From Aegotheles albertisi (Eukaryota): DNA of 42,503 nucleotides. Made by a program: the position numbers and the translations under genes. Of this stretch, positions 3,644-42,503 are shown piece by piece; position 1 is the first letter of the stretch, and every line of letters begins with the position of its first letter. Location: positions 161,716-204,218 of the forward strand of contig JBDMAX010000536.1 of assembly GCA_039906565.1 (NCBI GenBank). Reading direction: 5' to 3'. The notes under the pieces were generated by a model. That model was not told the origin of the DNA, searched no databases, and saw nothing but the letters and a program-made list of their open reading frames with translations.

Positions 3644-3925
3644 GGGGTCACAGAAAAATCGGGCAGCGTCCTGTTTGGGGCAGAAAGCGTGTTGGCTGTG
3701 CAGCTCTTGGGGAGGGCAGGAGGAGGCTGGCTTCCTGGGTCAGTGATGAGTGTTGGCATGTATTATCTGATGGGGAGGTGATGTCTATCCCCACTTTAGC
3801 TCTAGAATTACTCTGAGACCCAGGGAACTCCAGTTTCCCCCAGCAGTGACCTTTGAGCTTTTCCAGCGTGTGGAATCAAGTCACTGCCACAAATCCTGTC
3901 CCAGCGCCAGGAGAAGGGGGGGACG
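3644..3925. repeat. Copy 2 of the ~290-bp direct segmental repeat.
   Basis: Near-identical to 2047-2340. Confidence 0.85.
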
Positions 3926-6157: not shown

Positions 6158-7423
6158 CTCAGGGTTTAGGGGGGAGCTGTTATTGTGGGGGACACTGAGG
6201 GGTTTGGGGGGGACACCCAGGGTTTAGGGGGAGCTGTTATTGTGGGGGACACTGAGGGGTTTGGGGGGACACCCAGGGTTTAGGGGGAGCTGTTATTGTG
6301 GGGGACACTGAGGGGTTTGGGGGGACACCCAGGGTTTAGGGGGGAGCTGTTATTGTGGGGGACACTGAGGGGTTTGGGGGGGACACCCAGGGTTTAGGGG
6401 GAGCTGTTATTGTGGGGGACACTGAGGGGTTTGGGGGGACACCCAGGGTTTAGGGGGGAGCTGTTATTGTGGGGGACACTGAGGGGTTTGGGGGGGACAC
6501 CCAGGGTTTAGGGGGTGGCTGTTATTGTGGGGGACACTGAGGGGTTTGGGGGGGACACCCAGGGTTTAGGGGGGCTGTTATTGTGGGGGACACTGAGGGG
6601 TTTGGGGGGGACACCCAGGGTTTAGGGGGAGCTGTTATTGTGGGGGACACTGAGGGGTTTGGGGGGACACCCAGGGTTTAGGGGGGAGCTGTTATTGTGG
6701 GGGACACTGAGGGGTTTGGGGGGGACACCCAGGGTTTAGGGGGTGGCTGTTATTGTGGGGGACACTGAGGGTTTTGGGGGGGACACCCAGGGTTTAGGGG
6801 GAGCTGTTATTGTGGGGGACACTGAGGGGTTTGGGGGGACACCCAGGGTTTAGGGGGGAGCTGTTATTGTGGGGGACACTGAGGGGTTTGGGGGGACACC
6901 CAGGGTTTAGGGGGGAGCTGTTATTGTGGGGGACACTGAGGGGTTTGGGGGGACACCCAGGGTTTAGGGGGAGCTGTTATTGTGGGGGACACTGTGGGGT
7001 TTGGGGGGGACACCCAGGGTTTAGGGGGGAGCTGTTATTGTGGGGGACACTGAGGGGTTTGGGGGGGACACCCAGGGTTTGGGGGGGCTGTTATTGTGGG
7101 GGACACTGAGGGGTTTGGGGGGGACACCCAGGGGTTAGGGGGGAGCTGTTATTGGGGGGGACACTGAGGGGTTTGGGGGGACACCCAGGGTTTAGGGGGA
7201 GCTGTTATTGTGGGGGACACTGCGGGTTTGGGGGGGACACCCAGGGTTTAGGGGGGAGCTGTTATTGTGGGGGACACTGAGGGGTTTGGGGGGGACACCC
7301 AGGGTTTAGGGGGAGCTGTTATTGTGGGGGACACTGAGGGGTTTGAGGGGGACACCCAGGGTTTAGGGGGAGCTGTTATTGTGGGGGACACTGAGGGGTT
7401 TGGGGGGGACACCCAGGGTTTAG
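6158..7423. repeat. G-rich minisatellite, ~56-57-bp unit (GGGGGACACTGAGGGGTTTGGGGGGACACCCAGGGTTTAGGGGGAGCTGTTATTGT), ~22 copies.
   Basis: Direct tandem periodicity. Each unit contains GGGTTTAGGG and four or more G-tracts. Confidence 0.9.
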
Positions 7424-13250: not shown

Positions 13251-13447
13251 ACACCAGGGCAGCAGCCTAGAGCCCAGCAGGGACAATGAGGAGTGACGTG
13301 GGCTGGTTCAGGTGTGACAGCACCGAATGGTGCAGGTAGGAATTGTCTCCTCTGACAGGAAAAGGAACACTCAGGAGGGTGAGGGGGGAAAGAGCAAAGC
13401 CAGGAAGAGGAGACATACTCTGAACACATACTAATACTGGTTATTAC

Positions 13448-13548
13448 CTGACATAAAACAGTAAATAGGCTTTCTGCTTGAGAACTTTGGCGATGCCACA
13501 ACGACGGACATGCTCATCGTTCATCTCGTACCAGAGGCCATCGCTGGC
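13448..13548 (-). CDS. USP42: USP36/42-like exon: ASDGLWYEMNDEHVRRCGIAKVLKQKAYLLFYV(R). This is the catalytic Asn/Asp region, C-terminal end of the USP domain.
   Basis: Acceptor TTTTTTGCAG|GCC, donor AG|GTAATA. Matches USP42 [34 protein letters not shown]. Confidence 0.8.
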
Positions 13549-13740
13549 CTGCAAAAAAGGCATCGATATCGAGAGATGAACTGCATGGTTTCTCCACACA
13601 GACACAGGCAGAAAACTACAGAACCAAGAGTACACCAAAAAACTCCAATCCGGCCCCTGAGGAGACCACCTTGGCTGCCGTGAAAGGTTGTCTGCCCTGG
13701 GATACGATTTTCCCTGGGTAGGAAGGAAATTGCTCTTCAC

Positions 13741-13881
13741 CTTTGTGTAGCAGTAGTAGTGTCCTGCATTACAGCTTCCCCCATAATGCACCAGGACAGA
13801 GTACAGGCGGTAGAGCAGCGGTTCTCCAGCTGTCTGAGACACGTACGGCCCAAGATCCAGGTACTCGGGATACCGCACAAC
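13741..13881 (-). CDS. USP42: USP36/42-like exon: VVRYPEYLDLGPYVSQTAGEPLLYRLYSVLVHYGGSCNAGHYYCYTK (His box).
   Basis: Acceptor TCTCCGTAG|G, donor AAG|GTGAAG. Matches USP42 [45 protein letters not shown]. Confidence 0.85.
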
Positions 13882-18038: not shown

Positions 18039-18704
18039 AGTGTGGGGTACAAGGTGCCACCGACCCCCAGGGAGCAGCAGGTCCTGGTGGCCTTTCCCAA
18101 GGTCCAGGTGCTGGTGGCGGGGGAGAGATGGGCACAGAGGTGTCCCCGGCAGCCTGGCAGTCGCCGAGCTCGTGGAGGGAGCAGCAGGTCTGGGCCAGCC
18201 TCAGCAGGTGGGGTGGCATCAGGCAGGAGCTGGTGTGCAGGAGCTGTGGGGAGAGAGCGGGGGGAGCATCGACCCCGGGCCTGCCCTGCTGTGAGGGGAG
18301 AGCCCAGCCCCGCCATCGGCCCCTGCAGCACCGCCGGGTGCCGGCAGCAACGGCCACCAAGGCCGGGGGGGGACGGACACCCATCCTGGGGGAGGGGGAG
18401 GCTCCCAGAGCACGGGCGCTGTGCTGGGGGGGCAGCGGAGGGGCCCCGGGCCCGGGCCAGGCCCTGCTGGGCCTCGGGGCAGCCCCCACCCGCTCCATGG
18501 CGGAGCCGGGCCCGGCTCTGCGCAGCGCCCGCTGCTCCCCATGGGCCCGGCAGGGCCGGCACTGCCCGCGCTGGGCCCGCCCTCCCCTGAGGCGATGCGC
18601 GCTCTGATTGGCCCCCCGCCGGGCAGGCGGTGCTGCTGCCCCTGGGACTGCGCTCTGATTGGCTGCCGGGGCTGTCACTCTGGGCAGGGCCTGACAGCCT
18701 GCGC

Positions 18705-21182
18705 TGGGAGTGCTGGGAGAGACTGGGAGAGACTGGGAGAGACTGGGAGAGACTGGGAGAGACTGGGGGCACTGCGGGGGGTACTGGGAGAGACTGGGAG
18801 AGACTGGGAGAGACTGGGAGAGACTGGGGGCACTGCAGGGTGTACTGGTGAGCACTGGGGGCACTGCAGGGTGTGCTGGGAGTGCTGGGAGAGACTGGGG
18901 CGGTGCGGGGGGCACTGGGAGCACTGGGAGAGACTGGGGGCACTGCAGGCTGTACTGGTGAGCACTGGGAGAGACTGGGGGCACTGCAGGGTGTACTGGG
19001 GAGCACTGGGAGAGACTGGGGGCACTGCAGGCTGTACTGGTGAGCACTGGGAGAGACTGGGGGCACTGCGGGGTGTACTGGGGAGCACTGGGAGAGACTG
19101 GGAGAGACTGGGGGCACTGCGGGGGGTACTGGGAGCACTGGGAGAGACTGGGAGAGACTGGGAGAGACTGGGGGCGGTGCGGGGTGTACTGGGAGAGACT
19201 GGGAGAGACTGGGAGAGACTGGGAGAGACTGGGGGCGGTGCGGGGGGTACTGGGAGCACTGGGAGAGACTGGGAGAGACTGGGAGAGACTGGGGGCGGTG
19301 CGGGGGGTACTGGGAGCACTGGGAGAGACTGGGAGAGACTGGGGGCGGTGCGGGGTGTACTGGGAGCACTGGGAGAGACTGGGAGAGACTGGGAGAGACT
19401 GGGGGCGGTGCGGGGGGGACTGGGGGTACTGGGAGAGACTGGGAGAGACTGGGGGCACTGCAGGGTGTACTGGTGAGCACTGGGGGCACTGCAGGGTGTG
19501 CTGGGAGTGCTGGGAGAGACTGGGGCGGTGCGGGGGGCACTGGGAGCACTGGGAGAGACTGGGGGCACTGCAGGCTGTACTGGTGAGCACTGGGAGAGAC
19601 TGGGGGCACTGCAGGGTGTACTGGGGAGCACTGGGAGAGACTGGGGGCACTGCAGGCTGTACTGGTGAGCACTGGGAGAGACTGGGGGCACTGCAGGGTG
19701 TACTGGGGAGCACTGGGAGAGACTGGGGGCACTGCAGGGTGTACTGGGGAGCACTGGGAGAGACTGGGGGCACTGCGGGGTGTACTGGGAGCACTGGGAG
19801 AGACTGGGGGCACTGCAGGCTGTACTGGGGAGCACTGGGAGAGACTGGGGGCACTGCAGGCTGTACTGGTGAGTACTGGGAGAGACTGGGGGCACTGCAG
19901 GCTGTACTGGTGAGCACTGGGAGAGACTGGGGGCACTGCAGGCTGTCCTGGTGAGCACTGGGAGAGACTGGGGGCACTGCAGGGTGTACTGGTGAGCACT
20001 GGGAGAGACTGGGGGCACTGCAGGGTGTACTGGTGAGCACTGGGAGAGACTGGGGGCACTGCAGGCTGTACTGGTGAGCACTGGGAGAGACTGGGGGCAC
20101 TGCAGGGTGTACTGGTGAGCACTGGGAGAGACTGGGGGCACTGCAGGCTGTACTGGTGAGCACTGGGAGAGACTGGGAGAGACTGGGGGCACTGCGGGGT
20201 GTACTGGGATCACTGGGAGAGACTGGGGGCACTGCAGGCTGTACTGGGAGCACTGGGAGAGACTGGGGGCAGTGCGGGGTGTACTGGTGAGCACTGGGAG
20301 AGACTGGGGGCAGTGCGGGGTGTACTGGGAGCACTGGGAGAGACTGGGGGCAGTGCGGGGTGTACTGGGAGCAGTGGGAGAGACTGGGGGCATTGCAGGC
20401 TCTACTGGTGGGTACTGGGAGAGACTGGGGACACTGCGGTGTGTACTGGGAGAGACTGGGGGCACTGCAGGCTGTACTGGTGAGCACTGGGAGAGACTGG
20501 GGGCACTGCAGACTGTACTGGTGAGCACTGGGAGAGACTGGGGGTACTGCAGGGTGTACTGGGGAGCACTGGGAGAGACTGGGGGCACTGCAGGGTGTAC
20601 TGGGAGCAGTGGGAGAGACTGGGAGAGACTGGGGGCACTGCAGGCTGTACTGGTGAGCACTGGGAGAGACTGGGGGCGGTGCGGGGTGTACTGGGAGAGA
20701 CTGGGAGAGACTGGGGGCAGTGCGGGGTGTACTGGGAGCACTGGGAGAGACTGGGGGCACTGCAGGCTGTACTGGGAGCACTGGGAGAGACTGGGGGCAG
20801 TGCGGGGTGTACTGGTGAGTACTGGGAGAGACTGGGGGCACTGCAGGTTGTACTGGGAGCACTGGGAGAGACTGGGGGCACTGTGGGGTGTACTGGGGAG
20901 TGCTGGGAGAGACTGGGGGCACTGCAGGCTGTACTGGTGAGCGCTGGGAGAGACTGGGGGCACTGCAGGCTGTACTGGGAGCACTGGGAGAGACTGGGGG
21001 CACTGTGGGGTGTACTGGGGAGTGCTGGGAGAGACTGGGGGCACTGCAGGCTGTACTGGTGAGCGCTGGGAGAGACTGGGGGCACTGCAGGCTGTACTGG
21101 GAGCACTGGGAGAGACTGGGGGCACTGCAGGCTGTACTGGGAGCACTGGGAGAGACTGGGAGAGACTGGGAGAGACTGGGGG
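18705..21182. repeat. Intergenic G-rich minisatellite, ~41-bp unit (GGCACTGCAGGCTGTACTGGTGAGCACTGGGAGAGACTGGG) with interspersed GAGACTGGGAGA 12-mers, ~60 copies. All six frames are open.
   Basis: Tandem periodicity. The unit is not a multiple of 3, so the 700-1150-aa ORFs are repeat artefacts. Confidence 0.9.
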
Positions 21183-24041: not shown

Positions 24042-24158
24042 CTGAGAGCCTCCAGCTCCAGCAGTGCCCTGCGCGCCCGCTCAGCCTCCGCCTGGTCCAG
24101 GAGCCGCTGCCGCTCCAGGCGCCCGCGGGCCTCCTGCGCCAGCCGCTCCGCCTCTTGC
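24042..24158 (-). CDS. MVP: MVP exon: (R)[38 protein letters not shown](S).
   Basis: Matches human [39 protein letters not shown]. Acceptor CCCCAG|G, donor AG|GTCGGC. Confidence 0.85.
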
Positions 24159-24164
24159 CTGGGG

Positions 24165-24875
24165 ACACCGGGGGACACGGGGGGACACGGTGAGGGAATG
24201 GGGGAGCAGGGGACAGGGGGGTGTGGGGCGCATTTAGGGACACGAGGGACATGTGGGGGACATGGATGGACGCAGGGAGATCTGGTGATGTGGGGTGTTT
24301 GGGGACATGGGGGGGTGTGGGGGGACGTGGGAGGACACGGGGGACTGCGGGATGTGGGGGGGTGTCGGGGACTGTGGGATGTGGGGGGGTGTGGGGGAGC
24401 GTGGGGGGACGTGGGGGAGCATAGGGGGAAGTGGAGGGACGTGGTGGGATGTGGGGGAACATGGGACAGTGGGGCATGGGGGGATATGGTGGGGCATGGG
24501 GGGATATGGGGGGACATGAGGGGATATGGGGGGATATGGGGGGACATGGGGGGATATGGGGGGATATGGGGGGACATGGGGGGACATGGGGGGATATGGG
24601 GGGATATGGGGGGATATGGTGGGGCATGGGGGGATATGGGGGGACATGAGGGGATATGGGGGGATATGGGGGGACATGGTGGGGCATGGGGGGACATGGG
24701 GGGATATGGGGGGACTTGGGGGATGTGGAGGAGCGTGGGGGGACGTGGGAGGATGTGGTGGCAAGTGGGGGGACATGGGGGAGCATGGTGGGAAGTGGTG
24801 GGACGTGGAGGGACATGGGGGGACGTGGGGGGACATGGGGGGACATGGGGGGATGGAGGGGGAAGCGGGGGGCCA
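24165..24875. repeat. Intronic G-rich 20-21-bp minisatellite (GGGGGACATGGGGGGATATGG and variants), ~34 copies.
   Basis: Tandem periodicity. Confidence 0.9.
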
Positions 24876-24997
24876 TTTGGAGACACAAAGGACACCAAGT
24901 GGCCTCCTGGGCGCTAGCGTTGATCTCCAGGGACACAGGGGACAACACAGGAGGGACCTTGAGGGACAGGAGATGACACGGGGGGGGGCGTGAGGAC

Positions 24998-26374: not shown

Positions 26375-29300
26375 ACCCACCAAGGTCACACCCAAGGACA
26401 TCAGTGACACCCCAAGGCCATCAGTGACACCCCAAGGCCATCAGTCACACCAAGGTCACACCCAAGGACATCAGTGACACCCCAAGGCCATCGGTCACAC
26501 CAAGGTCACACCCAAGGACATCTGTGACACCCCAAGGCCATCGGTCACACCAAGGTCACACCCAAGGCCATCAGTGACACCCCAAGGCCATCGGTCACAC
26601 CAAGGTCACACCCAAGGACATCTGTGACACCCCAAGGCCATCGGTCACCCCAAGGTCACACCCAAGGACATCTGTGACACCCCAAGGCCATCGGTCACAC
26701 CAAGGTCACACCCCAAGGACATCAGTGACACCCCAAGGCCATCGGTCACACCCCAAGGCCATCGGTCACACCCCAAGGACATCTGTGACACCCCAAGGCC
26801 ATCAGTGACACCCCAAGGCCATCGGTCACACCAAGGTCACACCCAAGGACATCTGTGACACCTCAAGGCCATCAGTGACACCCCAAGGCCATCAGTGACA
26901 CCAAGGTCACACCCCAAGGACATCTGTGACACCCCAAGGCCATCGGTCACACCAAGGTCACACCCAAGGACATCTGTGACACCCCAAGGCCATCGGTCAC
27001 ACCAAGGTCACACCCAAGGACATCAGTGACACCCCAAGGCCATCGGTCACACCAAGGTCACATCCAAGGACATCAGTGACACCCCAAGGCCATCGGTCAC
27101 ACCAAGGTCACACCCAAGGCCATCAGTGACACCCCAAGGCCATCAGTCACACCAAGGTCACACCCAAGGACATCTGTGACACCCCAAGGCCATCAGTGAC
27201 ACCCCAAGGCCATCGGTCACACCAAGGTCACATCCAAGGACATCAGTGACACCCCAAGGCCATCGGTCACACCAAGGTCACACCCCAAGGACATCTGTGA
27301 CAGCCCAAGGACATCTGTGACACCCCAAGGCCATCAGTCACACCAAGGTCACACCCAAGGACATCTGTGACACCCCAAGGCCATCAGTGACACCAAGGTC
27401 ACACCCAAGGACATCAGTGACACCCCAAGGCCATCGGTCACACCAAGGTCACACCCCAAGGACATCTGTGACAGCCCAAGGACATCAGTGACACCCCAAG
27501 GCCATCGGTCACACCAAGGTCACACCCAAGGACATCAGTGACACCCCAAGGCCATCGGTCACACCAAGGTCACACCCAAGGACATCTGTGACACCCCAAG
27601 GCCATTGGTCACACCAAGGTCACACCCCAAGGACATCAGTGACACCCCAAGGCCATCGGTCACACCAAGGTCACCAATCACACCCCAAGGACAACATTCA
27701 AACACCAAGGCCACCAGTCACACCCAAGGACATCTGTGACACCCCAAGGCCATCGGTCACACCAAGGTCACACCCAAGGACATCTGTGACACCCCAAGGC
27801 CATCGGTCACACCAAGGTCACACCCCAAGGACATCAGTGACACCCCAAGGCCATCGGTCACACCAAGGTCACACCCAAGGACATCTGTGACACCCCAAGG
27901 CCATTGGTCACACCAAGGTCACATCCAAGGACATCTGTGACACCTCAAGGCCATCAGTCACACCCCAAGGACATCAGTGACACCCCAAGGCCATCAGTCA
28001 CACCAAGGTCACACCCCAAGGATATCTGTGACACCCCAAGGCCATCAGTCACACCAAGGTCACACCCCAAGGACATCTGTGACACCCCAAGGCCATCAGT
28101 CACACCAAGGTCACACCCAAGGACATCAGTGACACCCCAAGGCCATCGGTCACACCAAGGTCACACCCCAAGGACATCTGTGACACCTCAAGGCCATCGG
28201 TCACACCAAGGTCACACCCAAGGACATCAGTGACACCCCAAGGCCATCAGTGACACCAAGGTCACATCCAAGGACATCTGTGACACCCCAAGGCCATCGG
28301 TCACACCAAGGTCACACCCAAGGACATCTGTGACACCCCAAGGTCATCGGTCACACCAAGGTCACACCCAAGGACATCTGTGACACCCCAAGGCCATCGG
28401 TCACACCAAGGTCACACCCAAGGACATCTGTGACACCCCAAGGTCATCGGTCACACCAAGGTCACACCCAAGGACATCTGTGACACCCCAAGGCCATCGG
28501 TCACACCAAGGTCACACCCAAGGACATCAGTGACACCCCAAGGCCATCGGTCACACCAAGGTCACACCCAAGGACATCTGTGACACCCCAAGGCCATCGG
28601 TCACACCAAGGTCACACCCAAGGCCATCAGTGACACCCCAAGGCCATCGGTCACACCAAGGTCACACCCAAGGACATCAGTGACACCCCAAGGCCATCAG
28701 TGACACCAAGGTCACACCCCAAGGACATCTGTGACACCCCAAGGCCATCGGTCACACCAAGGTCACACCCAAGGACATCTGTGACACCCCAAGGCCATCG
28801 GTCACACCAAGGTCACACCCAAGGACATCTGTGACACCCCAAGGCCATCGGTCACACCAAGGTCACACCCCAAGGACATCAGTGACACCCCAAGGCCATC
28901 GGTCACACCAAGGTCACACCCCAAGGACATCAGTGACACCCCAAGGCCATCAGTGACACCAAGGTCACACCCAAGGACATCTGTGACACCCCAAGGCCAT
29001 CGGTCACACCAAGGTCACACCCCAAGGACATCTGTGACACCCCAAGGCCATCGGTCACACCAAGGTCACACCCAAGGCCATCAGTGACACCCCAAGGCCA
29101 TCGGTCACACCAAGGTCACACCCAAGGCCATCTGTGACACCCCAAGGCCATCGGTCACACCAAGGTCACACCCAAGGACATCAGTGACACCCCAAGGCCA
29201 TCGGTCACACCAAGGTCACACCCAAGGACATCAGTGACACCCCAAGGCCATCGGTCACACCAAGGTCACACCCAAGGACATCAGTGACACCCCAAGGCCA

Positions 29301-29825
29301 TCGGTCACACCAAGGCCACACCCCAAGGACATCTGTGACACCCCAAGGCCATCGGTCACACCAAGGTCACACCCCAAGGCCATCAGTGACACCCCAAGGC
29401 CATCAGTCACACCAAGGTCACATCCAAGGACATCAGTGACACCCCAAGGCCATCAGTGACACCAAGGTCACACCCCAAGGCCATCAGTGACACCCCAAGG
29501 CCATCAGTCACACCAAGGTCACATCCAAGGACATCTGTGACACCCCAAGGACATCAGTCACACCAAGGTCACATCCAAGGACATCTGTGACACCCCAAGG
29601 CCATCAGTCACACCAAGGTCACATCCAAGGACATCTGTGACACCCCAAGGCCATCGGTCACACCAAGGTCACACCCAAGGACATCTGTGACACCCCAAGG
29701 CCATCAGTCACACCAAGGTCACACCCAAGGACATCAGTGACACCCCAAGGCCATCGGTCACACCAAGGTCACCAATCACACCCCAAGGCCATCGGTCACA
29801 CCCAAGGCCATTGGTCACAGTCAAG
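26375..29825. repeat. Intronic ~50-bp minisatellite (CAAGGTCACA CCCAAGGACATCAGTGACAC CCCAAGGCCATCGGTCACAC; internal 20-bp subunits), ~68 copies over 3.4 kb. It is C/A-rich on the plus strand, so the pre-mRNA is G-rich.
   Basis: Tandem periodicity. Confidence 0.9.
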
Positions 29826-30135: not shown

Positions 30136-30139
30136 CTGC

Positions 30140-31075
30140 ACCGGGGACACAGCCACCGCGGGCACTGGGGGCACTGGGACGGGCTGGGGAACGGGAGGGG
30201 GCACAGGGGGACTGGGAGGGGGCTGGGGGAAATGGGAGGGGGCACAGGGGTACTGGGAGGGGGCACTGGGGGAAATGGGAGTGGGCTGGGGGAAATGGGA
30301 GTGGGCTGGGGGGAATGGGAGGGGGCACAGGGGTACTGGGAGGGGGGACTGGGGGAAATGGGAGTGGGCTGGGTGGAATGGGAGTGGGCACAGGGGCAAT
30401 GAGGGCACTGGAGTAGGCACAGAGGCACTGGGATGGGGACTGGGGGCAATGGGAGGGGACACTGGGCGCAATGGGAGGGGCACTGGGGGTACTGGGATGG
30501 GACCTGGGGGCACTAGAGGGGTGTGGGGGGAATGGGAGGGGGCGTGGGGGCACTGGGAGGGGGCACTGGGGGCAATGGGATAGGGACTGGGGGCAATGGG
30601 AGGGGCGTGGGGGGGACGGGAGGAGAACTGGGGGGGAATGGGAGGGGGCGTGGGGGCACTGGGATGGGGCTGGGGGAATGCGAGGGGGCACAAGGGCAAT
30701 AGGAGGGGGCATGGGGGCACTGGGAGGGGGCTGGGGGTACTGGGAGGGTGCATGGGGGCAATGAGGGCACTGGAGCAGGCACAGAGGCACTGGGATGGGG
30801 ACTGGGGGCACTGGGATGGGGACTGGGGGCACTGGAGGGGTGCAGGGGAATGGGAGAGGGTGCAGGGGCACTGGGAGCGGAACTGGGGGGAATGGGAGGG
30901 GGCATGGAGGCACTGGGAGAGGGCCTGGGGGCACTGGGAGGGGGCACTGGGGACACTGGGAGGGTGCACGGGGACACTGGGAGAGGAACTGGGAGTACTG
31001 GGAAGGGCTGCGTGGGATATTGGGAGCACTGGGAGGGGAGCTGAGAGACTGGGATTTTGTTTGGGGTCCCTGGGA
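30140..31075. repeat. Intronic G-rich minisatellite (GGGCACTGGGAGGGGGCACTGGGGGAAATGGGAG-type, ~30-bp units).
   Basis: Tandem periodicity. Confidence 0.85.
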
Positions 31076-33995
31076 TCTGACACATGGGATACTGGGGGGC
31101 AGTGGGGGGATACTGGGGGGCAGCGGGGGGGTACTGGGGGGCAGTGGGGGGATACTGGGGGGCAGTGGGGGGGTACTGGGGGGCAGTGGGGGGATACTGG
31201 GGGGCAGCGGGGGATACTGGGGGGCAGTGGGGGGGTACTGGGGGGCAGTGGGGGGGTACTGGGAGGCAGCGGGGGGATACTGGGGTGCAGCGGGGGGATA
31301 CTGGGGGGCAGTGGGGGGATACTGGGGTGCAGCGGGGGGATACTGGGATGGGGTTTCCGGTCACTGGGAGCACTGGGAGGGGAGCTGAGAGACTGGGATT
31401 TTGTTTGGGGTCCCTGGGATCTGACACATGGGATACTGGGAGGCAGTGGGGGGATACTGGGGGGCAGCGGGGGGGTACTGGGAGGCAGTGGGGGGATACT
31501 GGGGGGCAGCGGGGGATACTGGGGGGCAGTGGGGGGTACTGGGGGGCAGTGGGGGGGTACTGGGAGGCAGCGGGGGGATACTGGGGTGCAGCGGGGGGAT
31601 ACTGGGGGGCAGTGGGGGGATACTGGGCTGCAGCGGGGGGATACTGGGATGGGGTTTCCGGTCACTGGGAGCACTGGGAGGGGAGCTGAGAGACTGGGAT
31701 TTTGTTTGGGGTCCCTGGGATCTGACACATGGGATACTGGGAGGCAGTGGGGGGATACTGGGGGGCAGCGGGGGGGTACTGGGAGGCAGCGGGGGGGTAC
31801 TGGGGGGCAGTGGGGGGGTACTGGGGGGCAGCGGGGGGATACTGGGGGGCAGTGGGGGGATACTGGGGGGCAGCGGGGGGATACTGGGAGGCAGCGGGGG
31901 GGTACTGGGAGGCAGCGGGGGGGTACTGGGAGGCAGTGGGGGGATACTGGGGGGCAGTGGGGGGGTACTGGGGGGCAGCGGGGGGATACTGGGATGGGGT
32001 TTCCGGTCACTGGGAGCACTGGGAGGGGAGCTGAGAGACTGGGATTTTGTTTGGGGTCCCTGGGATCTGACACATGGGATACTGGGAGGCAGTGGGGGGA
32101 TACTGGGGGGCAGCGGGGGATACTGGGGGGCAGTGGGGGGGTACTGGGAGGCAGCGGGGGGATACTGGGGTGCAGCGGGGGGATACTGGGGGGCAGCGGG
32201 GGGATACTGGGGGGCAGTGGGGGGGTACTGGGGTGCAGCGGGGGGATACTGGGGGGCAGCGGGGGATACTGGGGGGCAGTGGGGGGGTACTGGGGGGCAG
32301 TGGGGGGGTACTGGGAGGCAGCGGGGGGATACTGGGGTGCAGCGGGGGGATACTGGGGGGCAGTGGGGGGATACTGGGGTGCAGCGGGGGGATACTGGGA
32401 TGGGGTTTCCGGTCACTGGGAGCACTGGGAGGGGAGCTGAGAGACTGGGATTTTGTTTGGGGTCCCTGGGATCTGACACATGGGATACTGGGAGGCAGTG
32501 GGGGGATACTGGGGGGCAGCGGGGGGGTACTGGGAGGCAGTGGGGGGATACTGGGGGGCAGCGGGGGATACTGGGGGGCAGTGGGGGGGTACTGGGGGGC
32601 AGTGGGGGGGTACTGGGAGGCAGCGGGGGGATACTGGGGTGCAGCGGGGGGATACTGGGGGGCAGTGGGGGGATACTGGGCTGCAGCGGGGGGATACTGG
32701 GATGGGGTTTCCGGTCACTGGGAGCACTGGGAGGGGAGCTGAGAGACTGGGATTTTGTTTGGGGTCCCTGGGATCTGACACATGGGATACTGGGAGGCAG
32801 TGGGGGGATACTGGGGGGCAGCGGGGGGGTACTGGGAGGCAGCGGGGGGGTACTGGGGGGCAGCGGGGGGATACTGGGGGGCAGCGGGGGGATACTGGGA
32901 GGCAGCGGGGGGTACTGGGAGGCAGTGGGGGGATACTGGGGGGCAGTGGGGGGATACTGGGGGGCAGTGGGGGGGTACTGGGGGGCAGCGGGGGGATACT
33001 GGGATGGGGTTTCCGGTCACTGGGAGCACTGGGAGGGGAGCTGAGAGACTGGGATTTTGTTTGGGGTCCCTGGGATCTGACACATGGGATACTGGGAGGC
33101 AGTGGGGGGATACTGGGGGGCAGCGGGGGATACTGGGGGGCAGTGGGGGGGTACTGGGAGGCAGCGGGGGGATACTGGGGTGCAGCGGGGGGATACTGGG
33201 GGGCAGCGGGGGGATACTGGGAGGCAGTGGGGGGATACTGGGAGGCAGCGGGGGGATACTGGGGGGCAGCGGGGGGGTACTGGGATGGGGTTTCCGGTCA
33301 CTGGGAGCACTGGGAGGGGAGCTGAGAGACTGGGATTTTGTTTGGGGTCCCTGGGATCTGACACATGGGATACTGGGGGGCAGTGGGGGGATACTGGGGG
33401 GCAGCGGGGGGGTACTGGGAGGCAGCGGGGGGATACTGGGGGGCAGTGGGGGGATACTGGGGGGCAGCGGGGGGATACTGGGATGGGGTTTCCGGTCACT
33501 GGGAGCACTGGGAGGGGAGCTGAGAGACTGGGATTTTGTTTGGGGTCCCTGGGATCCGACACATGGGATACTGGGGGGCAGTGGGGGGGTACTGGGGGGC
33601 AGTGGGGGGATACTGGGGGGCAGCGGGGGATACTGGGGGGCAGTGGGGGGATACTGGGAGGCAGTGGGGGGATACTGGGAGGCAGCGGGGGGATACTGGG
33701 GGGCAGCGGGGGGATACTGGGATGGGGTTTCCGGTCACTGGGAGCACTGGGAGGGGAGCTGAGAGACTGGGATTTTGTTTGGGGTCCCTGGGATCCGACA
33801 CATGGGATACTGGGAGGCAGTGGGGGGATACTGGGGGGCAGCGGGGGATACTGGGGGGCAGTGGGGGGGTACTGGGAGGCAGTGGGGGGATACTGGGGGG
33901 CAGTGGGGGGGTACTGGGAGGCAGTGGGGGGATACTGGGAGGCAGCGGGGGGATACTGGGATGGGGTTTCCGGTCACTGGGAGCACTGGGGGGGG
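31076..33995. repeat. Intronic G-rich 20-21-bp minisatellite (GGGATACTGGGGGGCAGTGGG) organised into higher-order repeats (~200-400 bp). The units are separated by a conserved ~95-bp spacer (GGATGGGGTTTCCGGTCACTGGGAGCACTGGGAGGGGAGCTGAGAGACTGGGATTTTGTTTGGGGTCCCTGGGATCTGACACATGGGATACTGG), ~10 spacer copies.
   Basis: Tandem periodicity. The spacer recurs at ~31021, 31347, 31646, 31991, 32395, 32700, 33002, 33286, 33482, 33722, 33962. Confidence 0.9.
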
Positions 33996-34045
33996 GTTGT
34001 GGGGGGTTGGGGTGCCCAAGGGGTGCCCGGGAGGGGTGGTGGCAC

Positions 34046-35219: not shown

Positions 35220-35456
35220 CTTGACAACGCGCTGCTGGCCCAGCTGGGGCTGCCCGTTGGGTCCCACCGGGTCCAGGATGACGCAGTACTGCCGGGGACC
35301 CAGCGTCGTCACCGCCACCTCGGCCACCACCTCCTCGAAGACGTCCGGGATGTAGGCTTCGCTCTGCTCGTGGGTCACCAGCCACTCCTCGCCCGTGCGC
35401 CGCACCCGGCCCTGCTCGTCCTCGAAGGTCCGCGTCGCGCGCAAGTGCAGGGCTTT
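35220..35456 (-). CDS. MVP: MVP exon: [79 protein letters not shown].
   Basis: Matches human [79 protein letters not shown]. Acceptor CTGGCAG|AAA, donor AAG|GTGGGC. Confidence 0.9.
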
Positions 35457-35564
35457 CTGCCAGGGGGGGACACGCGGTGGGCGTTGGGACACCCCAACAG
35501 GTCCCATCACCCAGGGGTGCAGGGAGATGGAGAGATGGCACCACCCAAACCAACCCTTGAGGGA

Positions 35565-36265
35565 CCTCATTGCATGTGGGGACAGGGGTGGGGTGGGTGG
35601 AGAGGACACCACGCCCTGGAGGGCCCTTGTGGGACACGGGACCCCCAAGAGCTCGGGAGGGTCCTCACCACCCATGGGCACAAGGGGTCAGAGCCTTGGA
35701 GGATCAGGTGGTGGTGGGACCCTTCACCCATCCCTGGAGGGTCCTCACCACCCATGGGCACAAGGGGTCAGAGTCTTGGAGGATCAGGTGGTGGTGGGAC
35801 CCTTCACCCACCCCTGGAGGGTCCTCACCACCCATGGGCACAAGGGGTCAGAGCCTTGGAGGTTCAGGTGGTGGTGGGACCCTTCACCCACCCCTGGAGG
35901 GTCCTGGTCACCCATGGGAGCAGGGGAATGGTGACACGGGACCCCCAAGAGCTCGGGAGGGTCCTCACCACCCATGGGCACGAGGGGTCAGAGTCTTGGA
36001 GGACCAGGTGGTGGTGGGACCCTTCACCCATCCCTGGAGGGTCCTCACCACCCATGGGCACAAGGGGTCAGAGCCTTGGAGGTTCAGGTGGTGGTGGGAC
36101 CCTTCACCCACCCCTGGAGGGTCCTTGTCACCCATGGGAGCAGGGGAATGGTGACACGGGACCCCCAAGAGCTCGGGAGGGTCCTCACCACCCATGGGCA
36201 CGAGGGGTCAGAGTCTTGGAGGATCAGGTGGTGGTGGGACCCTTCACCCACCCCTGGAGGGTCCT
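35565..36265. repeat. Intronic 80-bp minisatellite (~9 copies). Its unit resembles the acceptor site plus the 5' part of the downstream exon at 36323-36417, making it a pseudo-exon array.
   Basis: Unit (minus strand) CCCCTTGTGCCCATGGGTGGTGAGGACCCTCCAGGGATGGGTGAAGGG... compared with the authentic CCCTGTGCCCAG|GTGAGGAGTGGCTGGTGAAGCAGG. The 80-bp period was measured directly. Confidence 0.8.
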
Positions 36266-36322: not shown

Positions 36323-36417
36323 CTTCTCGGTCAGGATGTAGGCGTCCACGACGTCCACCACCTCCTCGTAGACCCCGGGCAGGTAGGCACCCACCTGCTT
36401 CACCAGCCACTCCTCAC
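36323..36417 (-). CDS. MVP: MVP exon: (G)[31 protein letters not shown].
   Basis: Matches human [32 protein letters not shown]. Acceptor TGCCCAG|GT, donor AAG|GTGTGG. Confidence 0.9.
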
Positions 36418-36439
36418 CTGGGCACAGGGGCACAGGGCT

Positions 36440-38255
36440 GGGTAGGGGTCCCCTATAGCCCCTCACAGCCCCTATAGCCCCCCCCACAGCCCCCTATAGT
36501 CCCCTATAGCCCCTCACAGCCCCTATAGCCCCCCCACAGCCCCCTATAGCCCCTCACAGCCCCCTATAGCCCCCCCACAGCCCCCTATAGCCCCTCATAG
36601 CCCCTATAGCCCCCCCACAGCCCCCTATAGCCCCCACAGCCCCTATAGCCCCTCACAGCCCCTATAGCCCCCACAGCCCCTATAGCCCCTCACAGCCCCC
36701 TATAGCCCCTCATAGCCCCTATAGCCCCTCATAGCCCCTTATAGCCCCTCACAGCCCCTATAGCCCCCCCCCAGCCCCTATAGCCCCTCATAGCCCCTAT
36801 AGCCCCTCACAGCCCCCTATAGCCCCTCATAGCCCCTATAGCCCCTCATAGCCCCCTATAGCCCCTCATAGCCCCCATAGCCCCCCCCCAGCCCCCTATA
36901 GCTCCCCACAGCCCCCTATAGCCCCCCCATGGCTTCCTATAGCCCCTCATAGCCCCTATAGCCCCTCATAGCCCCCATAGCCCCCCCCAGCCCCTATAGC
37001 TCCCCACAGCCCCCTATAGCCCCCCCATGGCTTCCTATAGCCCCTCATAGCCCCTATAGCCCCTCATAGCCCCTATAGCCCCTCACAGCCCCCTATAGCC
37101 CCTCATAGCCCCTATAGCCCCTCACAGCCCCCTATAGCCCCTCATAGCCCCTATAGCCCCCCCATGGCTTCCTATAGCCCCTCATAGCCCCTATAGCCCC
37201 TCACAGCCCCCTATAGCCCCTCATAGCCCCTATAGCCCCTCACAGCCCCCTATAGCCCCTCACAGCCCCTATAGCCCCCCACAGCCCCATATAGCCCCCC
37301 CATGGCCCCCTCTACCCCTCACAGCTGCCTATAGCCCCCTCACAGTCTCCTATAGACCCCCCATGGATCCCTATAGCCCCCCCATGCCCCCTATAGCCTT
37401 CTCTCCAGCCCCCTATAGCCCCCCATGGCCCCTATAGCCCCTCCTGCCCAGCAACTTATAGCCCCCACAGCCCCCTATAGCTCCCCACAGCCCCTATAGC
37501 CTCCCACAGCCCCCTATAGCCCCTATAGCCTCCCACAGCCCCCTACAGCCCCTCATAGCCCCTATAGCCTCTCATAGCCCCTATAGCCCCTCATAGCCCC
37601 TATAGCCCCTCATAGTCCCCTATAGCCCCTCATAGCCCCTATAGCCCCTCACAGCCCCCTATAGCCTCTCATAGCCCCTATAGCCCCTCATAGCCCCTAT
37701 AGCCTCTCACGGCCCCCTATAGCCCCTCATAGCCCCTATAGCCCCTCACAGCCCCTATAGCCCCTCATAGCCCCTATAGCCCCTCACAGCCCCTATAGCC
37801 CCCCCACGGCTTCCTATAGCCCCTCATAGCCCCCTATAGCCCCTCACAGCCCCCTATAGCCCCTCATAGCCCCTATAGCCCCCCCATGGCTTCCTACAGC
37901 CCCTCATAGCCCCTATAGCCTCTCACAGCCCCCTATAGCCCCTATAGCCCCTCATAGCCCCTATAGCCTCTCACAGCCCCCTATAGCCCCTCACAGCCCC
38001 TATAGCCTCCCACAGCCCCCTATAGCCCCTCATAGCCCCTATAGCCCCTCACAGCCCCCTATAGCCCCTCATAGCCCCTATAGCCCTCATAGCCCCCTAT
38101 AGCCCCTATAGCCCCTCATAGCCCCTATAGCCCCTCACAGCCCCTATAGCCCCTCATAGCCCCTATAGCCCCCCCACGGCTTCCTATAGCCCCTCATAGC
38201 CCTTATAGCCCCTCACAGCCCCCTATAGCCCCTCACGGCCCCCTATAGCCCCCCC
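36440..38255. repeat. Intronic C-rich 20-22-bp minisatellite (CCCCTATAGCCCCTCACAGCC / CCCCTATAGCCCCTCATAGCC), ~85 copies.
   Basis: Tandem periodicity. An inverted copy of the same family occurs at 40670-40950. Confidence 0.9.
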
Positions 38256-38259
38256 AGCC

Positions 38260-40225
38260 ACCTCCACCCCCCCGTACCCCCCTGTCCCCCCCCTGTAACG
38301 GTGACCCTGCGGGTGCCCCCCTGTCCCCCCCCCTGTACCGGTGACCCTGCGGGTGCCCCCCCATGCCCCCGTCCCCCCGACCCTGTGGGTGCCCCCCCTG
38401 TCCCCCCCCGTACCGGTGACCCTGTGGGTGCCCCCCCCTGTCCCCCCCCTGTCCCCGTGACCCTGCGGGTGCCCCCCCATCCCCCCCCCGTACCGGTGAC
38501 CCTGCGGGTGCCCCCCCATCCCCCCTGTCCCAGTGACCCTGCGGGTGCCCCCCCATCCCCCCCCCCGTACCGGTGACCCTGCGGGTGCCCCCCCCATCCC
38601 CCCCCCTGTACCGGTGACCCTGCGGGTGCCCCCCCTGTCCCCCCCCTGTACCAGTGACCCTGCGGGTGCCCCCCCGTCCCCCCCTGTCCCAGTGACCCTG
38701 CGGGTGCCCCCCCGTCCCCCCCTGTCCCAGTGACCCTGTGGGTGCCCCCCCATCCCCCCCCCCGTACCGGTGACCCTGTGGGTGCCCCCCTGTCCCCCCC
38801 CTGTACCGGTGACCCCGTGGGTGCCCCCCCCTGTCCCCCCTGTACCGGTGACCCTGTGGGTGCCCCCCCCATCCCCCCCATACCGGTGACCCTGTGGGTG
38901 CCCCCCCTGTCCCCCCCTGTCCCAGTGACCCTGTGGGTGCCCCCCCTGTCCCCCCCCTGTACCGGTGACCCTGTGGGTGCCCCCCCGTCCCCTCCCGTCC
39001 CGGTGACCCTGTGGGTACCCCCCATCCCCTCCCGTCCCGGTGACCCTGTGGGTGCCCCCCATCCCCCCTGTACCGGTGACCCTGCGGGTACCCCCCGTCC
39101 CCCCCCTGTACCGGTGACCCTGTGGGTGCCCCCCCATTCCCCCCCTGTACCGGTGACCCTGTGGGTGCCCCCCTGTCCCCCCTGTCCCAGTGACCCTGCG
39201 GGTACCCCCCCATCCCCCCGTACCGGTGACCCTGCGGGTGCCCCCCTGTCCCCCCCTGTCCCAGTGACCCTGCGGGTGCCCCATCCCCCCCCCTGTACCG
39301 GTGACCCTGTGGGTGCCCCCCTGTCCCCCCCCTGTCCCAGTGACCCTGCGGGTACCCCCCTGTCCCCCCCCGTACCGGTGACCCTGTGGGTGCCCCCCTG
39401 TCCCCCCCCTGTCCCAGTGACCCTGTGGGTGCCCCCCCTGTCCCCCCCCCTGTACCGGTGACCCTGTGGGTACCGCCAGTCCCCCCCCTGTCCCAGTGAC
39501 CCTGTGGGTGCCCCCCTGTCCCCCCCTGTACCGGTGACCCTGCGGGTGCCCCCCTTGTCCCCCCCCCGTCCCGGTGACCCTGCGGGTGCCCCCCCTGTCC
39601 CAGTGACCCTGTGGGTGCCCCCCCTGTCCCCCCCTGTCCCAGTGACCCTGCGGGTGCCCCCCCATCCCCCCTGTCCCAGTGACCCTGCGGGTGCCCCCCT
39701 GTCCCCCCCCTGTCCCAGTGACCCTGTGGGTGCCCCCCCATCCCCCCTGTCCCAGTGACCCTGCGGGTGCCCCCCTGTCCCCCCCCTGTCCCAGTGACCC
39801 TGTGGGTGCCCCCCCCATCCCCCCCTGTCCCAGTGACCCTGCGGGTGCCCCCCTGTCCCCCCCCTGTCCCAGTGACCCTGTGGGTGCCCCCCCCATCCCC
39901 CCCTGTACCGGTGACCCTGTGGGTACCCCCTGTCCCCCCCCCGTACCGGTGACCCTGCGGGTGCCCCCCCTGTCCCCCCCTGTCCCAGTGACCCTGCGGG
40001 TGCCCCCCTGTCCCCCCCCTGTACCGGTGACCCTGTGGGTGCCCCCCCATCCCCCCCCCTGGTACCGGTGACCCTGCGGGTGCCGCCAGTCCCCCCCTGT
40101 ACCGGTGACCCTGCGGGTGCCCCTCCCTGTCCCCCCTGGTACCGGTGACCCTGCGGGTGCCCCCCTGTCCCCCCTGTCCCAGTGACCCTGTGGGTACCCC
40201 CCCATCCCCCTGTACCGGTGACCCT
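38260..40225. repeat. Intronic 37-38-bp minisatellite (ACCGGTGACCCTGCGGGTGCCCCCCTGTCCCCCCCTGT), ~52 copies. It was amplified from the 3' end and 5' splice site of the adjacent MVP exon, so each unit carries CACCG|GTACAG or the variant CACTG|GGACAG.
   Basis: The exon at 40216-40347 ends ...CGCAGGGTCACCG|GTACAG. The array units on the transcribed strand read CACCCGCAGGGTCACCGGTACAGGGGGG(GA)CAGGGGGG. Confidence 0.9.
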
Positions 40226-40347
40226 GCGGGTGCCGTGCCGGTCCCGGCTCTCCTTGCGTGCCCGCAGCCGGATGGCCTGGTTGTGCCCGATGACGGTGCC
40301 CTGCAGCGTCTCCACCACCGCCACCTCCTTCCGCGGGACGTAGGTGC
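40216..40347 (-). CDS. MVP: MVP exon: (G)[43 protein letters not shown](G).
   Basis: Matches human [45 protein letters not shown]. Acceptor CCCCCCAG|GC, donor CCG|GTACAG. Confidence 0.9.
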
Positions 40348-40437
40348 CTGGGGGGCTGCGCGGTCACCACGGGCTGTGTCCCCCCCCCGGCCCCTGGCTG
40401 TGTCCCCCCCGCCCCGGGCTGTGTCCCCGCTGCTCAC

Positions 40438-40561
40438 CGGGACCCTCGAAGAGCCACTCGTCCCCCGCCACCACTTTCTGGCCACCCTCGTCCGTGAAGT
40501 CCAGCAGGGCCCGGAGGCGCAGGGCGGTGTCGGCCACGAGCACCTGGAGCGGGGTCACCCC
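40438..40561 (-). CDS. MVP: MVP exon: [41 protein letters not shown](G). This is the 5'-most MVP exon inside the window; the N-terminal ~110 codons lie beyond 42503.
   Basis: Matches human [41 protein letters not shown]. Acceptor TGTCCGCAG|GGG, donor CCG|GTGAGC. Confidence 0.9.
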
Positions 40562-40669
40562 CTGCGGACACGGGGGGAGCTCAGGGGACCCCCTGGGGAC
40601 CCCCTGGGGACACGGGGACAGCTCAGGGGACCCCCTGGGAACCCCCTGGGAACCCCCTGGGGACATGGG

Positions 40670-40950
40670 GGGGGGCTGTAGGGGCTGGGAAGGGGCTATA
40701 AGAGGCCATGAGGGGCTATAGGGGGCTGTGAGGGGGCTATAGGGGGCTATAGGGGGCTATAGGGGGCTATAGGGGGCTGTGAGGGGGCTATAGGGGGCTG
40801 TGAGGGGCATTGGAGGCCATAGGGGGGCTATAGGGGGCTGTGAGGGGGCTGTGAGGGGCATTGGAGGCCGTAGGGGGGCTATAGGGGGCTGTGAGGGGGC
40901 TATAGGGGCCCGTGGAGGGCTATAGGGAGCCATGGGGGGGGCTATAGGGA
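40670..40950. repeat. G-rich 20-22-bp minisatellite (GGGCTATAGGGGGCTGTGAGG). It is the inverted complement of the 36440-38255 array family.
   Basis: GGGGCTGTGAGGGGGCTATAGGGGG is the reverse complement of CCCCCTATAGCCCCCTCACAGCCCC. Confidence 0.85.
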
Positions 40951-42480
40951 GTTATGAGATTCTATAGGGGGCCCTGGAGGACTGTAGGTGTTGGGGGGGG
41001 GGCTATAACAGGCTGTCGGGCTTATGGGGCCTATAGGAGTTGTAGGGCCCATAGGGGTTGTAGGACCTATAGGGGTCATGGGGCCATAGGGGTCACAGAG
41101 CCTATAGGGGTCATGGGGCCTATAGGGGTTATGGGGCCTATAGGGGTCATGGTGCCTATAGGGGTTATGGGGCCATAGGGGTCACGGTGCCTATACGGGT
41201 TATGGTGCCTATAGGGGTCATGGATCCTATAGGGGTCACGGTGCCTATAGGGGTCATGGTGCCTATAGGGGTCACGGTGCCTATAGGGGTCATGGTGCCT
41301 ATAGGGGTCATGGTGCCTATAGGGGTCATGGGGCCTATAGGGGTTATGGATCCTATAGGGGTCATGGTGCCTATAGGGGTCATGGAGTCTATAGGGGTTA
41401 TGGTGCCTATAGGGGTCATGGTGCCTATAGGGGTTATGGGGCCATAGGGGTCACGGTGCCTATAGGGGTCACGGGGCCTATAGGGGTTATGGATCCTATA
41501 GGGGTCATGGATCCTATAGGGGTCACGGTGCCTATAGGGGTCACGGTGCCTATAGGGGTTATGGTGCCTATAGGGGTCACGGTGCCTATAGGGGTTATGG
41601 ATCCTATAGGGGTTATGAATCCTATAGGGGTCACGGTGCCTATAGGGGTCATGGTGCCTATAGGGGTTATGAATCCTATAGGGGTCACGGTGCCTATAGG
41701 GGTCACGGTGCCTATAGGGGTTATGGATCCTATAGGGGTTATGGGGCCTATAGGGGTCATGGTGCCTATAGGGGTTATGGGGCCATAGGGGTTATGGGGC
41801 CTATAGGGGTTATGGTGCCTATAGGGGTTATGGATCCTATAGGGGTCACGGTGCCTATAGGGGTCACGGTGCCTATAGGGGTCACGGTGCCTATAGGGGT
41901 TATGGATCCTATAGGGGTCATGGATCCTATAGGGGTCATGGTGCCTATAGGGGTCATGGGGCCTATAGGGGTCATGGGGCCATAGGGGTCACGGTGCCTA
42001 TAGGGGTCATGGATCCTATAGGGGTTATGAATCCTATAGGGGTCATGGATCCTATAGGGGTCATGGATCCTATAGGGGTCACGGTGCCTATAGGGGTCAC
42101 GGTGCCTATAGGGGTTATGGTGCCTATAGGGGTTATGGATCCTATAGGGGTTATGAATCCTATAGGGGTCACGGTGCCTATAGGGGTCATGGTGCCTATA
42201 GGGGTTATGAATCCTATAGGGGTCACGGTGCCTATAGGGGTCACGGTGCCTATAGGGGTTATGGAACCTATAGGGGTCATGGTGCCTATAGGGGTCACGG
42301 TGCCTATAGGGGTCATGGAGCCTATAGCGGTTATGGATCCTATAGGGGTTATGGATCCTATAGGGGTCACGGTGCCTATAGGGGTCATGGTGCCTATAGG
42401 GGTCATGGATCCTATAGGGGTCATGGTGCCTATAGGGGTCACGGTGCCTATAGGGGCTATAGGGGTCTATAGGGGTCACG
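40950..42480. repeat. G-rich 18-bp minisatellite (CCTATAGGGGTCATGGTG / CCTATAGGGGTTATGGAT variants), ~85 copies. It is related to the CTATAGGGG family.
   Basis: Tandem periodicity. It lies in the MVP intron upstream of the exon at 40438-40561. Confidence 0.9.
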
Positions 42481-42503
42481 GGGCCGCACCTGCTGGATCT
42501 CCT

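Follow-up and report, generated by a model that had tools for sequence, protein, structure and literature searches.

The window studied here is a 42,503-bp stretch of the genome of Aegotheles albertisi (assembly GCA_039906565.1, contig JBDMAX010000536.1, positions 161,716 to 204,218 of the forward strand). It carries a minus-strand bird MVP gene in which two minisatellite arrays of one repeat family lie in opposite orientations in introns 2 and 4, on either side of two short exons, here called A and B. With fair confidence we regard these inverted arrays as a lineage-specific, probably neutral by-product of the 'sequence stuttering' of avian introns, the name given by Hron et al. (2026) to the imperfect local tandem expansions that fill the introns of genes on chicken dot-microchromosomes (PMC12954441).

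Inverted arrays in introns 2 and 4 of MVP

The arrays were delimited with Tandem Repeats Finder (TRF), and both are described here as they lie in the minus-strand gene. The intron 2 arm is a 281-bp minisatellite (40670-40950; 40670-40951 in the TRF call) that precedes the acceptor of exon A at a distance of 108 nt. The plus strand of this arm is rich in G, and its pre-mRNA is 54% C. The intron 4 arm is a 1.8-kb minisatellite in the 3' half of that intron (36450-38255), with a period of 19 or 39 bp, approximately 94 copies and 80% matches; individual TRF calls run from 36450 to 38252 or 38263, with the unit CCCCTATAGCCCCTCACAG. This arm is C-rich on the plus strand, the pre-mRNA reading CUGUGAGGGGCUAUAGGGG (52% G), and it stops 32 nt short of the exon C 3' splice site. 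The arms are very unequal in length (1806 vs 281 bp) and the spacer between them measures 2,414 bp, in agreement with the distance of about 2.4 kb given in a first-pass annotation of the window. The core of the family is CTATAG, with runs of G or C on either side.

The first-pass annotation had described the two arrays as reverse complements of each other. This was borne out by blastn, in which each of the 42 high-scoring segment pairs (HSPs) between the G-rich and the C-rich array was a minus-strand match (286-303 columns, 79-81% identity, 25-35 gap positions), and by the strict strand segregation of the 9-mer CTATAGGGG. This 9-mer occurs 160 times (0.58 expected), a number reached by no shuffled sequence. 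There are 77 copies on the minus strand, within 36450-38248, and 83 on the plus strand, within 40716-42475, while the remaining 36 kb of the window contains none. Likewise, 28% of the 12-mers of the G-rich array were found in the reverse complement of the C-rich array and 0 in the same orientation. The longest perfect complementary run between the arms is 28 nt. The window has ten other arrays, none of which shares a 12-mer with either arm. The idea that the family is a dispersed dot-chromosome minisatellite, two copies of which happen to be inverted here, was rejected for this window, as both the 9-mer and the shared 12-mers are limited to introns 2 and 4.

The gene is, as judged from its sequence, bird MVP, because the closest named proteins in a database protein search were bird MVP models (Chlamydotis, Eudyptes, Nyctibius and Cuculus) at 90-91% identity. 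No identical protein was found in that search, the top matches being partial bird models in the same range of identity. By tblastn, residues 107-851 of human MVP are spread over a string of short exons that starts at 40564 and reaches 22736 on the minus strand; the human sequence served as a probe only. The exons of concern here are exon Z (42490-42503), of which only the 3' end (…EEIQQ) precedes the end of the window, exon A (40438-40561, 124 nt), exon B (40216-40347, 132 nt) and exon C (36323-36417, 95 nt), all on the minus strand. Exon Z, with the donor GTGCGG, fits the Nyctibius MVP sequence '...PGEEIQQGVTPLQ', and exon C was placed by its borders and by a tblastn match of 78% identity to human residues 193-224. 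Between them lie intron 2 (40562-42489, 1,928 nt), intron 3 (40348-40437, 90 nt) and intron 4 (36418-40215, 3,798 nt), each placed by its splice sites. When joined, exons Z, A, B and C give a single open frame, ...EEIQQ GVTPLQ..., that agrees with Nyctibius MVP. The two exons between the arms had been called MVP exons in the first-pass annotation, and minus-strand tblastn matches, AG/GT borders and the continuous frame uphold that assignment.

Predicted RNA pairing

Pairing was modelled by cofolding, with real arrays of the same gene as controls; the energies refer to trimmed RNA at equilibrium, in the absence of proteins and of co-transcriptional kinetics. RNAduplex alone was rejected as misleading, since any C-rich strand pairs with any G-rich strand: a dinucleotide-shuffled intron 2 arm still gave -400 kcal/mol, compared with -564 kcal/mol for the real one.

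On cofolding, the intron 2 arm and any 300-nt segment of the intron 4 arm gave a free-energy difference (ddG) of -352 to -399 kcal/mol, or -263 to -318 kcal/mol when G-quadruplexes (G4) were allowed in the free G-rich strand. The same arm gave -135 to -162 kcal/mol (-48 to -88 with G4 allowed) with the 39-bp array that occupies the 5' half of intron 4, and -27 to -39 kcal/mol, irrespective of G4, with an array at 26411. For the intron 4 arm the values were -172 to -234 kcal/mol (-109 to -171 with G4 allowed) with unrelated C-rich arrays from downstream introns and -120 to -155 kcal/mol (-58 to -92) with the 18-bp array that adjoins the intron 2 arm. The 18-bp array therefore pairs with the intron 4 arm less well than unrelated C-rich arrays do, because its palindromic core makes it fold on itself (-101 to -105 kcal/mol per 281 nt). 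The intron 2 arm has little structure of its own (-39 kcal/mol).

In the minimum free energy (MFE) structure of a trimmed pre-mRNA of 2,136 nt, 233-248 of the 281 nt of the intron 2 arm were paired with the intron 4 arm and exons A and B were enclosed, whether or not G4 were allowed. Pairing across the introns was thus favoured in silico over pairing within them. According to these models the pairing potential of the arms is real and specific. The proposal in the first-pass annotation that the arrays could form a long RNA stem looping out both exons accordingly holds in silico, with a ddG far beyond the controls.

Comparison with other birds

The MVP loci of a bustard, a cuckoo, a penguin and a killdeer were compared with that of the window by means of motif counts against shuffled sequences and probe alignments. 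These replaced a low-stringency blastn of the introns, in which composition alone produced 'hits' of 58-65%. In all four birds intron 4 is 0.85-1.1 kb long, C-rich in transcript sense and free of the family, with only 0-1 occurrences of the G-type motif YTRTAGG. As these four assemblies lack it, the 1.8-kb intron 4 array is best read as a lineage-specific addition.

Intron 2 gave a different picture. The complementary C-type motif was found 8 times in the C-rich 5' part of penguin intron 2 (0.3 expected) and 8 times in cuckoo intron 2 (0.1 expected), in the latter case inside a 66-bp array. A seed of the 18-bp unit, CCCCTATAGGCTCCATAACCCCT, is present 62-85 nt into penguin intron 2, and degenerate seeds occupy the corresponding position in penguin, killdeer and cuckoo alike. 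The presence of these seeds at one spot suggests that intron 2 is the ancestral place of the family and has its ancestral orientation. The family itself would then be old and the intron 2 arrays of the window would be expansions in situ.

The transcript of intron 1 is rich in G in both penguin and killdeer and contains 11-12 copies of YTRTAGG, where 0.4-0.6 are expected. The G-type sequences of intron 1 (CTATAGGG/CTGTAGGG) and the complementary C-type sequences of intron 2 were located in loci L003 (2121-2727 and 2925-3200) and L004 (2121-2700 and 2898-3142). Because introns 1 and 2 of both birds show it, an inverted arrangement around exon Z (exon 2) is, at the level of motifs, older than the lineage of the window. 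Direct complementarity between introns 1 and 2 was weak and amounted to 64% over approximately 100 nt in the penguin; in the killdeer none was found.

Two further observations were made on these loci. In the bustard (L001, 10120-10400) the assembly passes from the first ~250 nt of intron 1 straight into the end of intron 3, so that exons Z and A are missing and the protein as annotated continues across the junction. The junction is either a collapsed assembly or a genuine deletion in a repeat-rich stretch. The bustard model was considered as a possible skipping isoform lacking exons Z and A and was rejected, as the sequence itself is missing from the assembly. In the cuckoo (L002, 13085-13245) a 40-bp unit is repeated 4 times that copies the end of another MVP exon (…LQLQLAYNW) together with its GT donor, an independent case of exon stuttering.

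Neighbouring arrays and other features

TRF returned 85 rows over the window. Intron 2 is approximately 95% array sequence and intron 4 approximately 99%, and most of the other MVP introns are filled by large arrays. The intron 2 arm is followed, towards exon Z, by a transition zone and the 18-bp array (40951-42485 together, the array itself at 41024-42485, minus strand; TRF periods 18, 36 and 54 bp, approximately 81 copies), which reads GGTGCCTATAGGGGTCAT on the plus strand. In transcript sense its unit is GACCCCUAUAGGCACCAU, with the palindromic core CCTATAGG; the array has the orientation of the intron 2 arm, grades into it, and begins 4 nt past the exon Z 5' splice site. The first-pass annotation had counted this array in the same family and placed it upstream. 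The core is indeed held in common, but identity to the reverse complement of the C-rich array is only ~67%, and 'upstream' is correct in the sense of the minus-strand gene and in no other.

The 5' half of intron 4 is taken up by the array between the arms (38277-40234, minus strand, 51 copies), whose period by TRF is 39 bp and not 37 bp as first annotated. Its unit includes the last ~19 nt of exon B with the 5' splice site, and the array overlaps the last 19 nt of that exon. There are 25 extra copies of the exon end and donor, with [A/G]GGGTCAC[C/T]G on the exon side and GT[A/G] on the intron side of the junction; 23 are exact for the last 10 exon nt, and in 14 of the 25 the sequence is exactly ACCG followed by GTACAG. 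The term 'exon stuttering' has been given to expansions that duplicate the edge of an exon along with its splice site, with chicken PHF8 as an example (PMC12954441). The 39-bp array is a clear case of this and could supply alternative donors, the use of which would add multiples of about 37-41 nt to the transcript. The frame of exon B stays open for 700 codons into the array. A coding role was nevertheless rejected, since every frame is open through composition and MVP orthologues join exon B straight to exon C.

On the acceptor side of exon A, the 108-nt linker to the intron 2 arm (40562-40669, minus strand) contains an 11-bp repeat found by TRF, GGGGACCCCCT, in approximately 7 copies (40584-40664). 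It resembles the start of exon A with the acceptor AG, the junction being GGGGTCACCCCCTG and the repeat GGGGACCCCCTGG (on the plus strand, GGGGTCACCCC next to CTG). To judge from this resemblance, it may be exon stuttering of the acceptor side, making pseudo-acceptors.

On the coding strand, intron 4 as a whole has 73 canonical G4 motifs (G3+N1-7 x4), with 35 in its arm and 37 in the 39-bp array. On the template strand there are 11 in intron 2, of which the arm has 6, and 78 and 14 in the introns at 30139-34042 and 24155-24996, respectively. These are counts of sequence motifs and stand for predicted, not folded, structures. Because the G4 strand changes from intron to intron, no single strand rule applies to the gene. 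An Rfam scan of 36-42.5 kb gave no family match.

Elsewhere, further kb-scale minisatellites were found at 6153-7423, 18704-21160, 26411-29772, 30160-33960, 24301-24853 and 35656-36265, with units of 57, 41, 50, 21, 10 and 80 bp, respectively. They are separate families without common 12-mers, and several occupy other MVP introns. The tblastn border of exon D overshoots by 3 nt (35456-35459); the likeliest acceptor, cag before AAAGCC, puts its start at 35456 and removes a spurious Q. Two matches to the C/D-box small nucleolar RNA SNORD45, which at 54 and 58 bits exceed the Rfam gathering score, lie on the plus strand at 2154-2238 and 3738-3822, presumably in introns of a plus-strand host gene at the start of the window. 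An open reading frame on the minus strand (13444-13878) encodes …VLVHYGGSCNAGHYYCY…WYEMNDEHV…AYLLFYVR. We take its C-terminal motif to be ubiquitin-specific-protease-like, which suggests that a gene of the USP family adjoins MVP.

Discussion

With the anatomy and the pairing energies of the arms established, we infer the following for their origin and for any effect on splicing. The MVP introns would have been replaced almost entirely by locally expanded imperfect minisatellites, as on the GC-rich dot chromosomes of birds. In intron 2 an ancestral seed, C-rich in the transcript, would have expanded in situ. In intron 4 an inverted local duplication of a seed, or a template switch, would most likely have been followed by expansion in its new place. 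An inversion from intron 2 is favoured as the source over a direct copy from intron 1, because the arms have a CTCACAG subunit in common and are 80% identical. As a side effect, intron 2 is predicted to pair with the 3' half of intron 4 in an imperfect duplex of approximately 280 bp, with exons A and B in the loop. If it behaved like a pair of inverted Alus, such a duplex would be expected to allow some back-splicing, giving a 256-nt circle, and some frameshifting skipping of A and B.

The likeness to published stuttering, a context absent from the first-pass annotation, is close. The MVP introns consist nearly wholly of imperfect local tandem repeats whose units measure tens of bp, several unrelated arrays are found in a single GC-rich bird gene, and one of them repeats the adjacent exon edge and donor many times, all as described by Hron et al., who also report that intron lengths are highly polymorphic and give the mechanism as unknown (PMC12954441). 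The family in introns 2 and 4 departs from that description in occupying two non-adjacent introns in opposite orientation. The word 'inverted' is absent from the text of that paper, and MVP is unnamed in the text and the available supplements (PMC12954441); that one stutter family has been seeded a second time, inverted and in another intron, goes beyond the published description. Two preprints describe related arrays. Dot-chromosome introns have been found to be more than 70% tandem repeat, to have many G4 motifs and to be built of units in multiples of 10-11 bp (10.1101/2025.10.17.683159), and a telomere-to-telomere zebra finch assembly contains related dot-chromosome arrays that are prone to sequencing drop-outs (10.1101/2025.10.14.682431). 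The MVP arrays resemble these minisatellites in their degenerate units of multiples of about 10 bp, their many G4 motifs and the way they fill the introns of a GC-rich gene. They differ in that the G4 strand varies by intron, whereas the preprints report an excess of intron G4 on the coding strand.

Several points weigh against a neutral by-product of stuttering. Placing the gene on a dot chromosome is suggested by GC content, which is 0.55-0.75 across most 1-kb bins of the window, by repeat architecture and by the identity of the gene as bird MVP. According to Hron et al., each repeat block is confined to one intron (PMC12954441); this family spans introns 2 and 4, while all other arrays of the window keep to the single-intron rule. 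Little self-structure in an arm and pairing far above the controls would also be expected under selection for pairing. Intron 1, which is G-type in other birds, lies beyond the window and could be the true source of the intron 4 array or an additional pairing partner. Finally, the four comparison assemblies appear to be built from short reads or to be fragmentary, with stretches of N in three of them and two exons missing from one, so that arrays may be collapsed in them.

The resemblance to inverted Alu pairs raises the question of whether the arms form a functional RNA element, in which pairing of introns 2 and 4 makes a circular RNA (circRNA) of exons A and B or lowers MVP through a frameshifting skip. 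As in Alu pairs at circRNA exons, approximately 280 nt of imperfect complementarity (~80%) surround a small group of exons, neither intron 2 nor intron 4 holds a competing complementary partner, and the predicted stem places the downstream donor close to the upstream acceptor. The predicted duplex is strong and specific (ddG approximately -360 kcal/mol, vs -120 to -235 kcal/mol for the other C-rich arrays of the gene), both exons stay looped out in the MFE structure of the trimmed pre-mRNA when G4 are permitted, the splice sites of exons A and B are canonical, and back-splicing is known to be facilitated by reverse-complementary repeats in the introns on either side (PMC8516420). Unlike Alus, the MVP arms are tandem minisatellites with many pairing registers, and the intron 4 arm is a dense predicted G4 former, whose 35 motifs may compete with pairing, as may the intervening G-rich 39-bp array, which is transcribed first. 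The exon B donor lies 1.96 kb from the intron 4 arm. Any function would have to be very young, given that the intron 4 arm is missing from the assemblies of the four other birds, circRNAs that depend on young repeats have been argued to be mostly by-products of splicing (PMC8516420), and skipping of A and B destroys the reading frame. On balance we think a functional element of this kind unlikely.

The products themselves can be specified. Back-splicing, which the first-pass annotation did not mention, is the documented outcome of reverse-complementary sequences in flanking introns (PMC8516420), and the junction predicted here, from the exon B donor to the exon A acceptor, would join GGGTCACCG to GGGGTGACC (at greater length, ...AGGGTCACCG to GGGGTGACCCCG...). 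The predicted skip junction would join ATCCAGCAG to GTGAGGAGT (at greater length, ...GAGATCCAGCAG to GTGAGGAGTGG...). Skipping of A and B removes 256 nt, shifts the frame and brings a stop 5 codons past the junction. Because of this shift the product would be a loss-of-function transcript or a substrate for nonsense-mediated decay (NMD), not an isoform.

Action at the level of DNA, by hairpin or cruciform formation or by recombination between the arms, could lead to fork stalling, breakage or inversion of the segment with exons A and B. The arms are true inverted repeats on one chromosome, several hundred bp long like those of inverted repeats or quasi-palindromes that cause fragility (281 bp, or up to ~1.8 kb if the 18-bp array is counted), and the bustard assembly, without exons Z and A and with its junction in the repeats of intron 1, shows that the region is prone to rearrangement or mis-assembly. 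Under normal conditions the instability of inverted repeats is inversely correlated with their distance and divergence, very long single-stranded DNA being excepted; there, interaction persists between repeats separated by as much as 30 kb and diverged by as much as 25% (PMC10164571). With a spacer of 2,414 bp, divergence of ~20%, 25-35 gap positions and no perfect match longer than 28 nt, the MVP arms probably fall outside the unstable range save in very long single-stranded DNA. The direct repeats, dense in G4 motifs, are far likelier obstacles to replication than long-range pairing. The case for replication fork stalling made in the first-pass annotation is therefore weak, and a DNA-level effect of the pair seems highly improbable.

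An error of assembly in one array, or in the way it is oriented, is more improbable still. Minisatellite-rich euchromatin of dot chromosomes does show strong drop-outs of HiFi reads and is missing from earlier assemblies (10.1101/2025.10.14.682431), and the lengths of the arrays are to that extent uncertain. However, the arms do not form a near-perfect palindrome like fold-back artefacts; they are ~80% identical and differ in length and in their patterns of variants. Each is contiguous with unique exons in the right order, orientation and frame, and the intron 2 arm is located where orthologous seeds lie in other birds.

Conclusions

The family reported here, probably a neutral product of intron stuttering, occurs in inverted copies around two exons of MVP. 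A bolder proposal, to which we give little credence at present, is that stutter arrays seeded in inverted orientation across exons are the footprint of strand switching, by fold-back or template-switch repair at the palindromic CTATAG, and that such pairs then act like inverted Alus. If this were true, inverted minisatellite pairs would give rise to intronic double-stranded RNA (dsRNA) driving back-splicing, frameshifting skips or RNA editing, and the cost of that dsRNA would add to the decay and loss of transposon-poor dot-chromosome genes. The pairing of the arms predicts, at the RNA level, a 256-nt circle, a frameshifting skip and clusters of editing; if RNA and populations show nothing, the arms are one more neutral pair among many such arrays. 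The inverted copy bears on the mechanism of avian intron stuttering and on its tie to the loss of dot-chromosome genes, and any mechanism proposed for such stuttering must account for an inverted stutter copy in a second intron.

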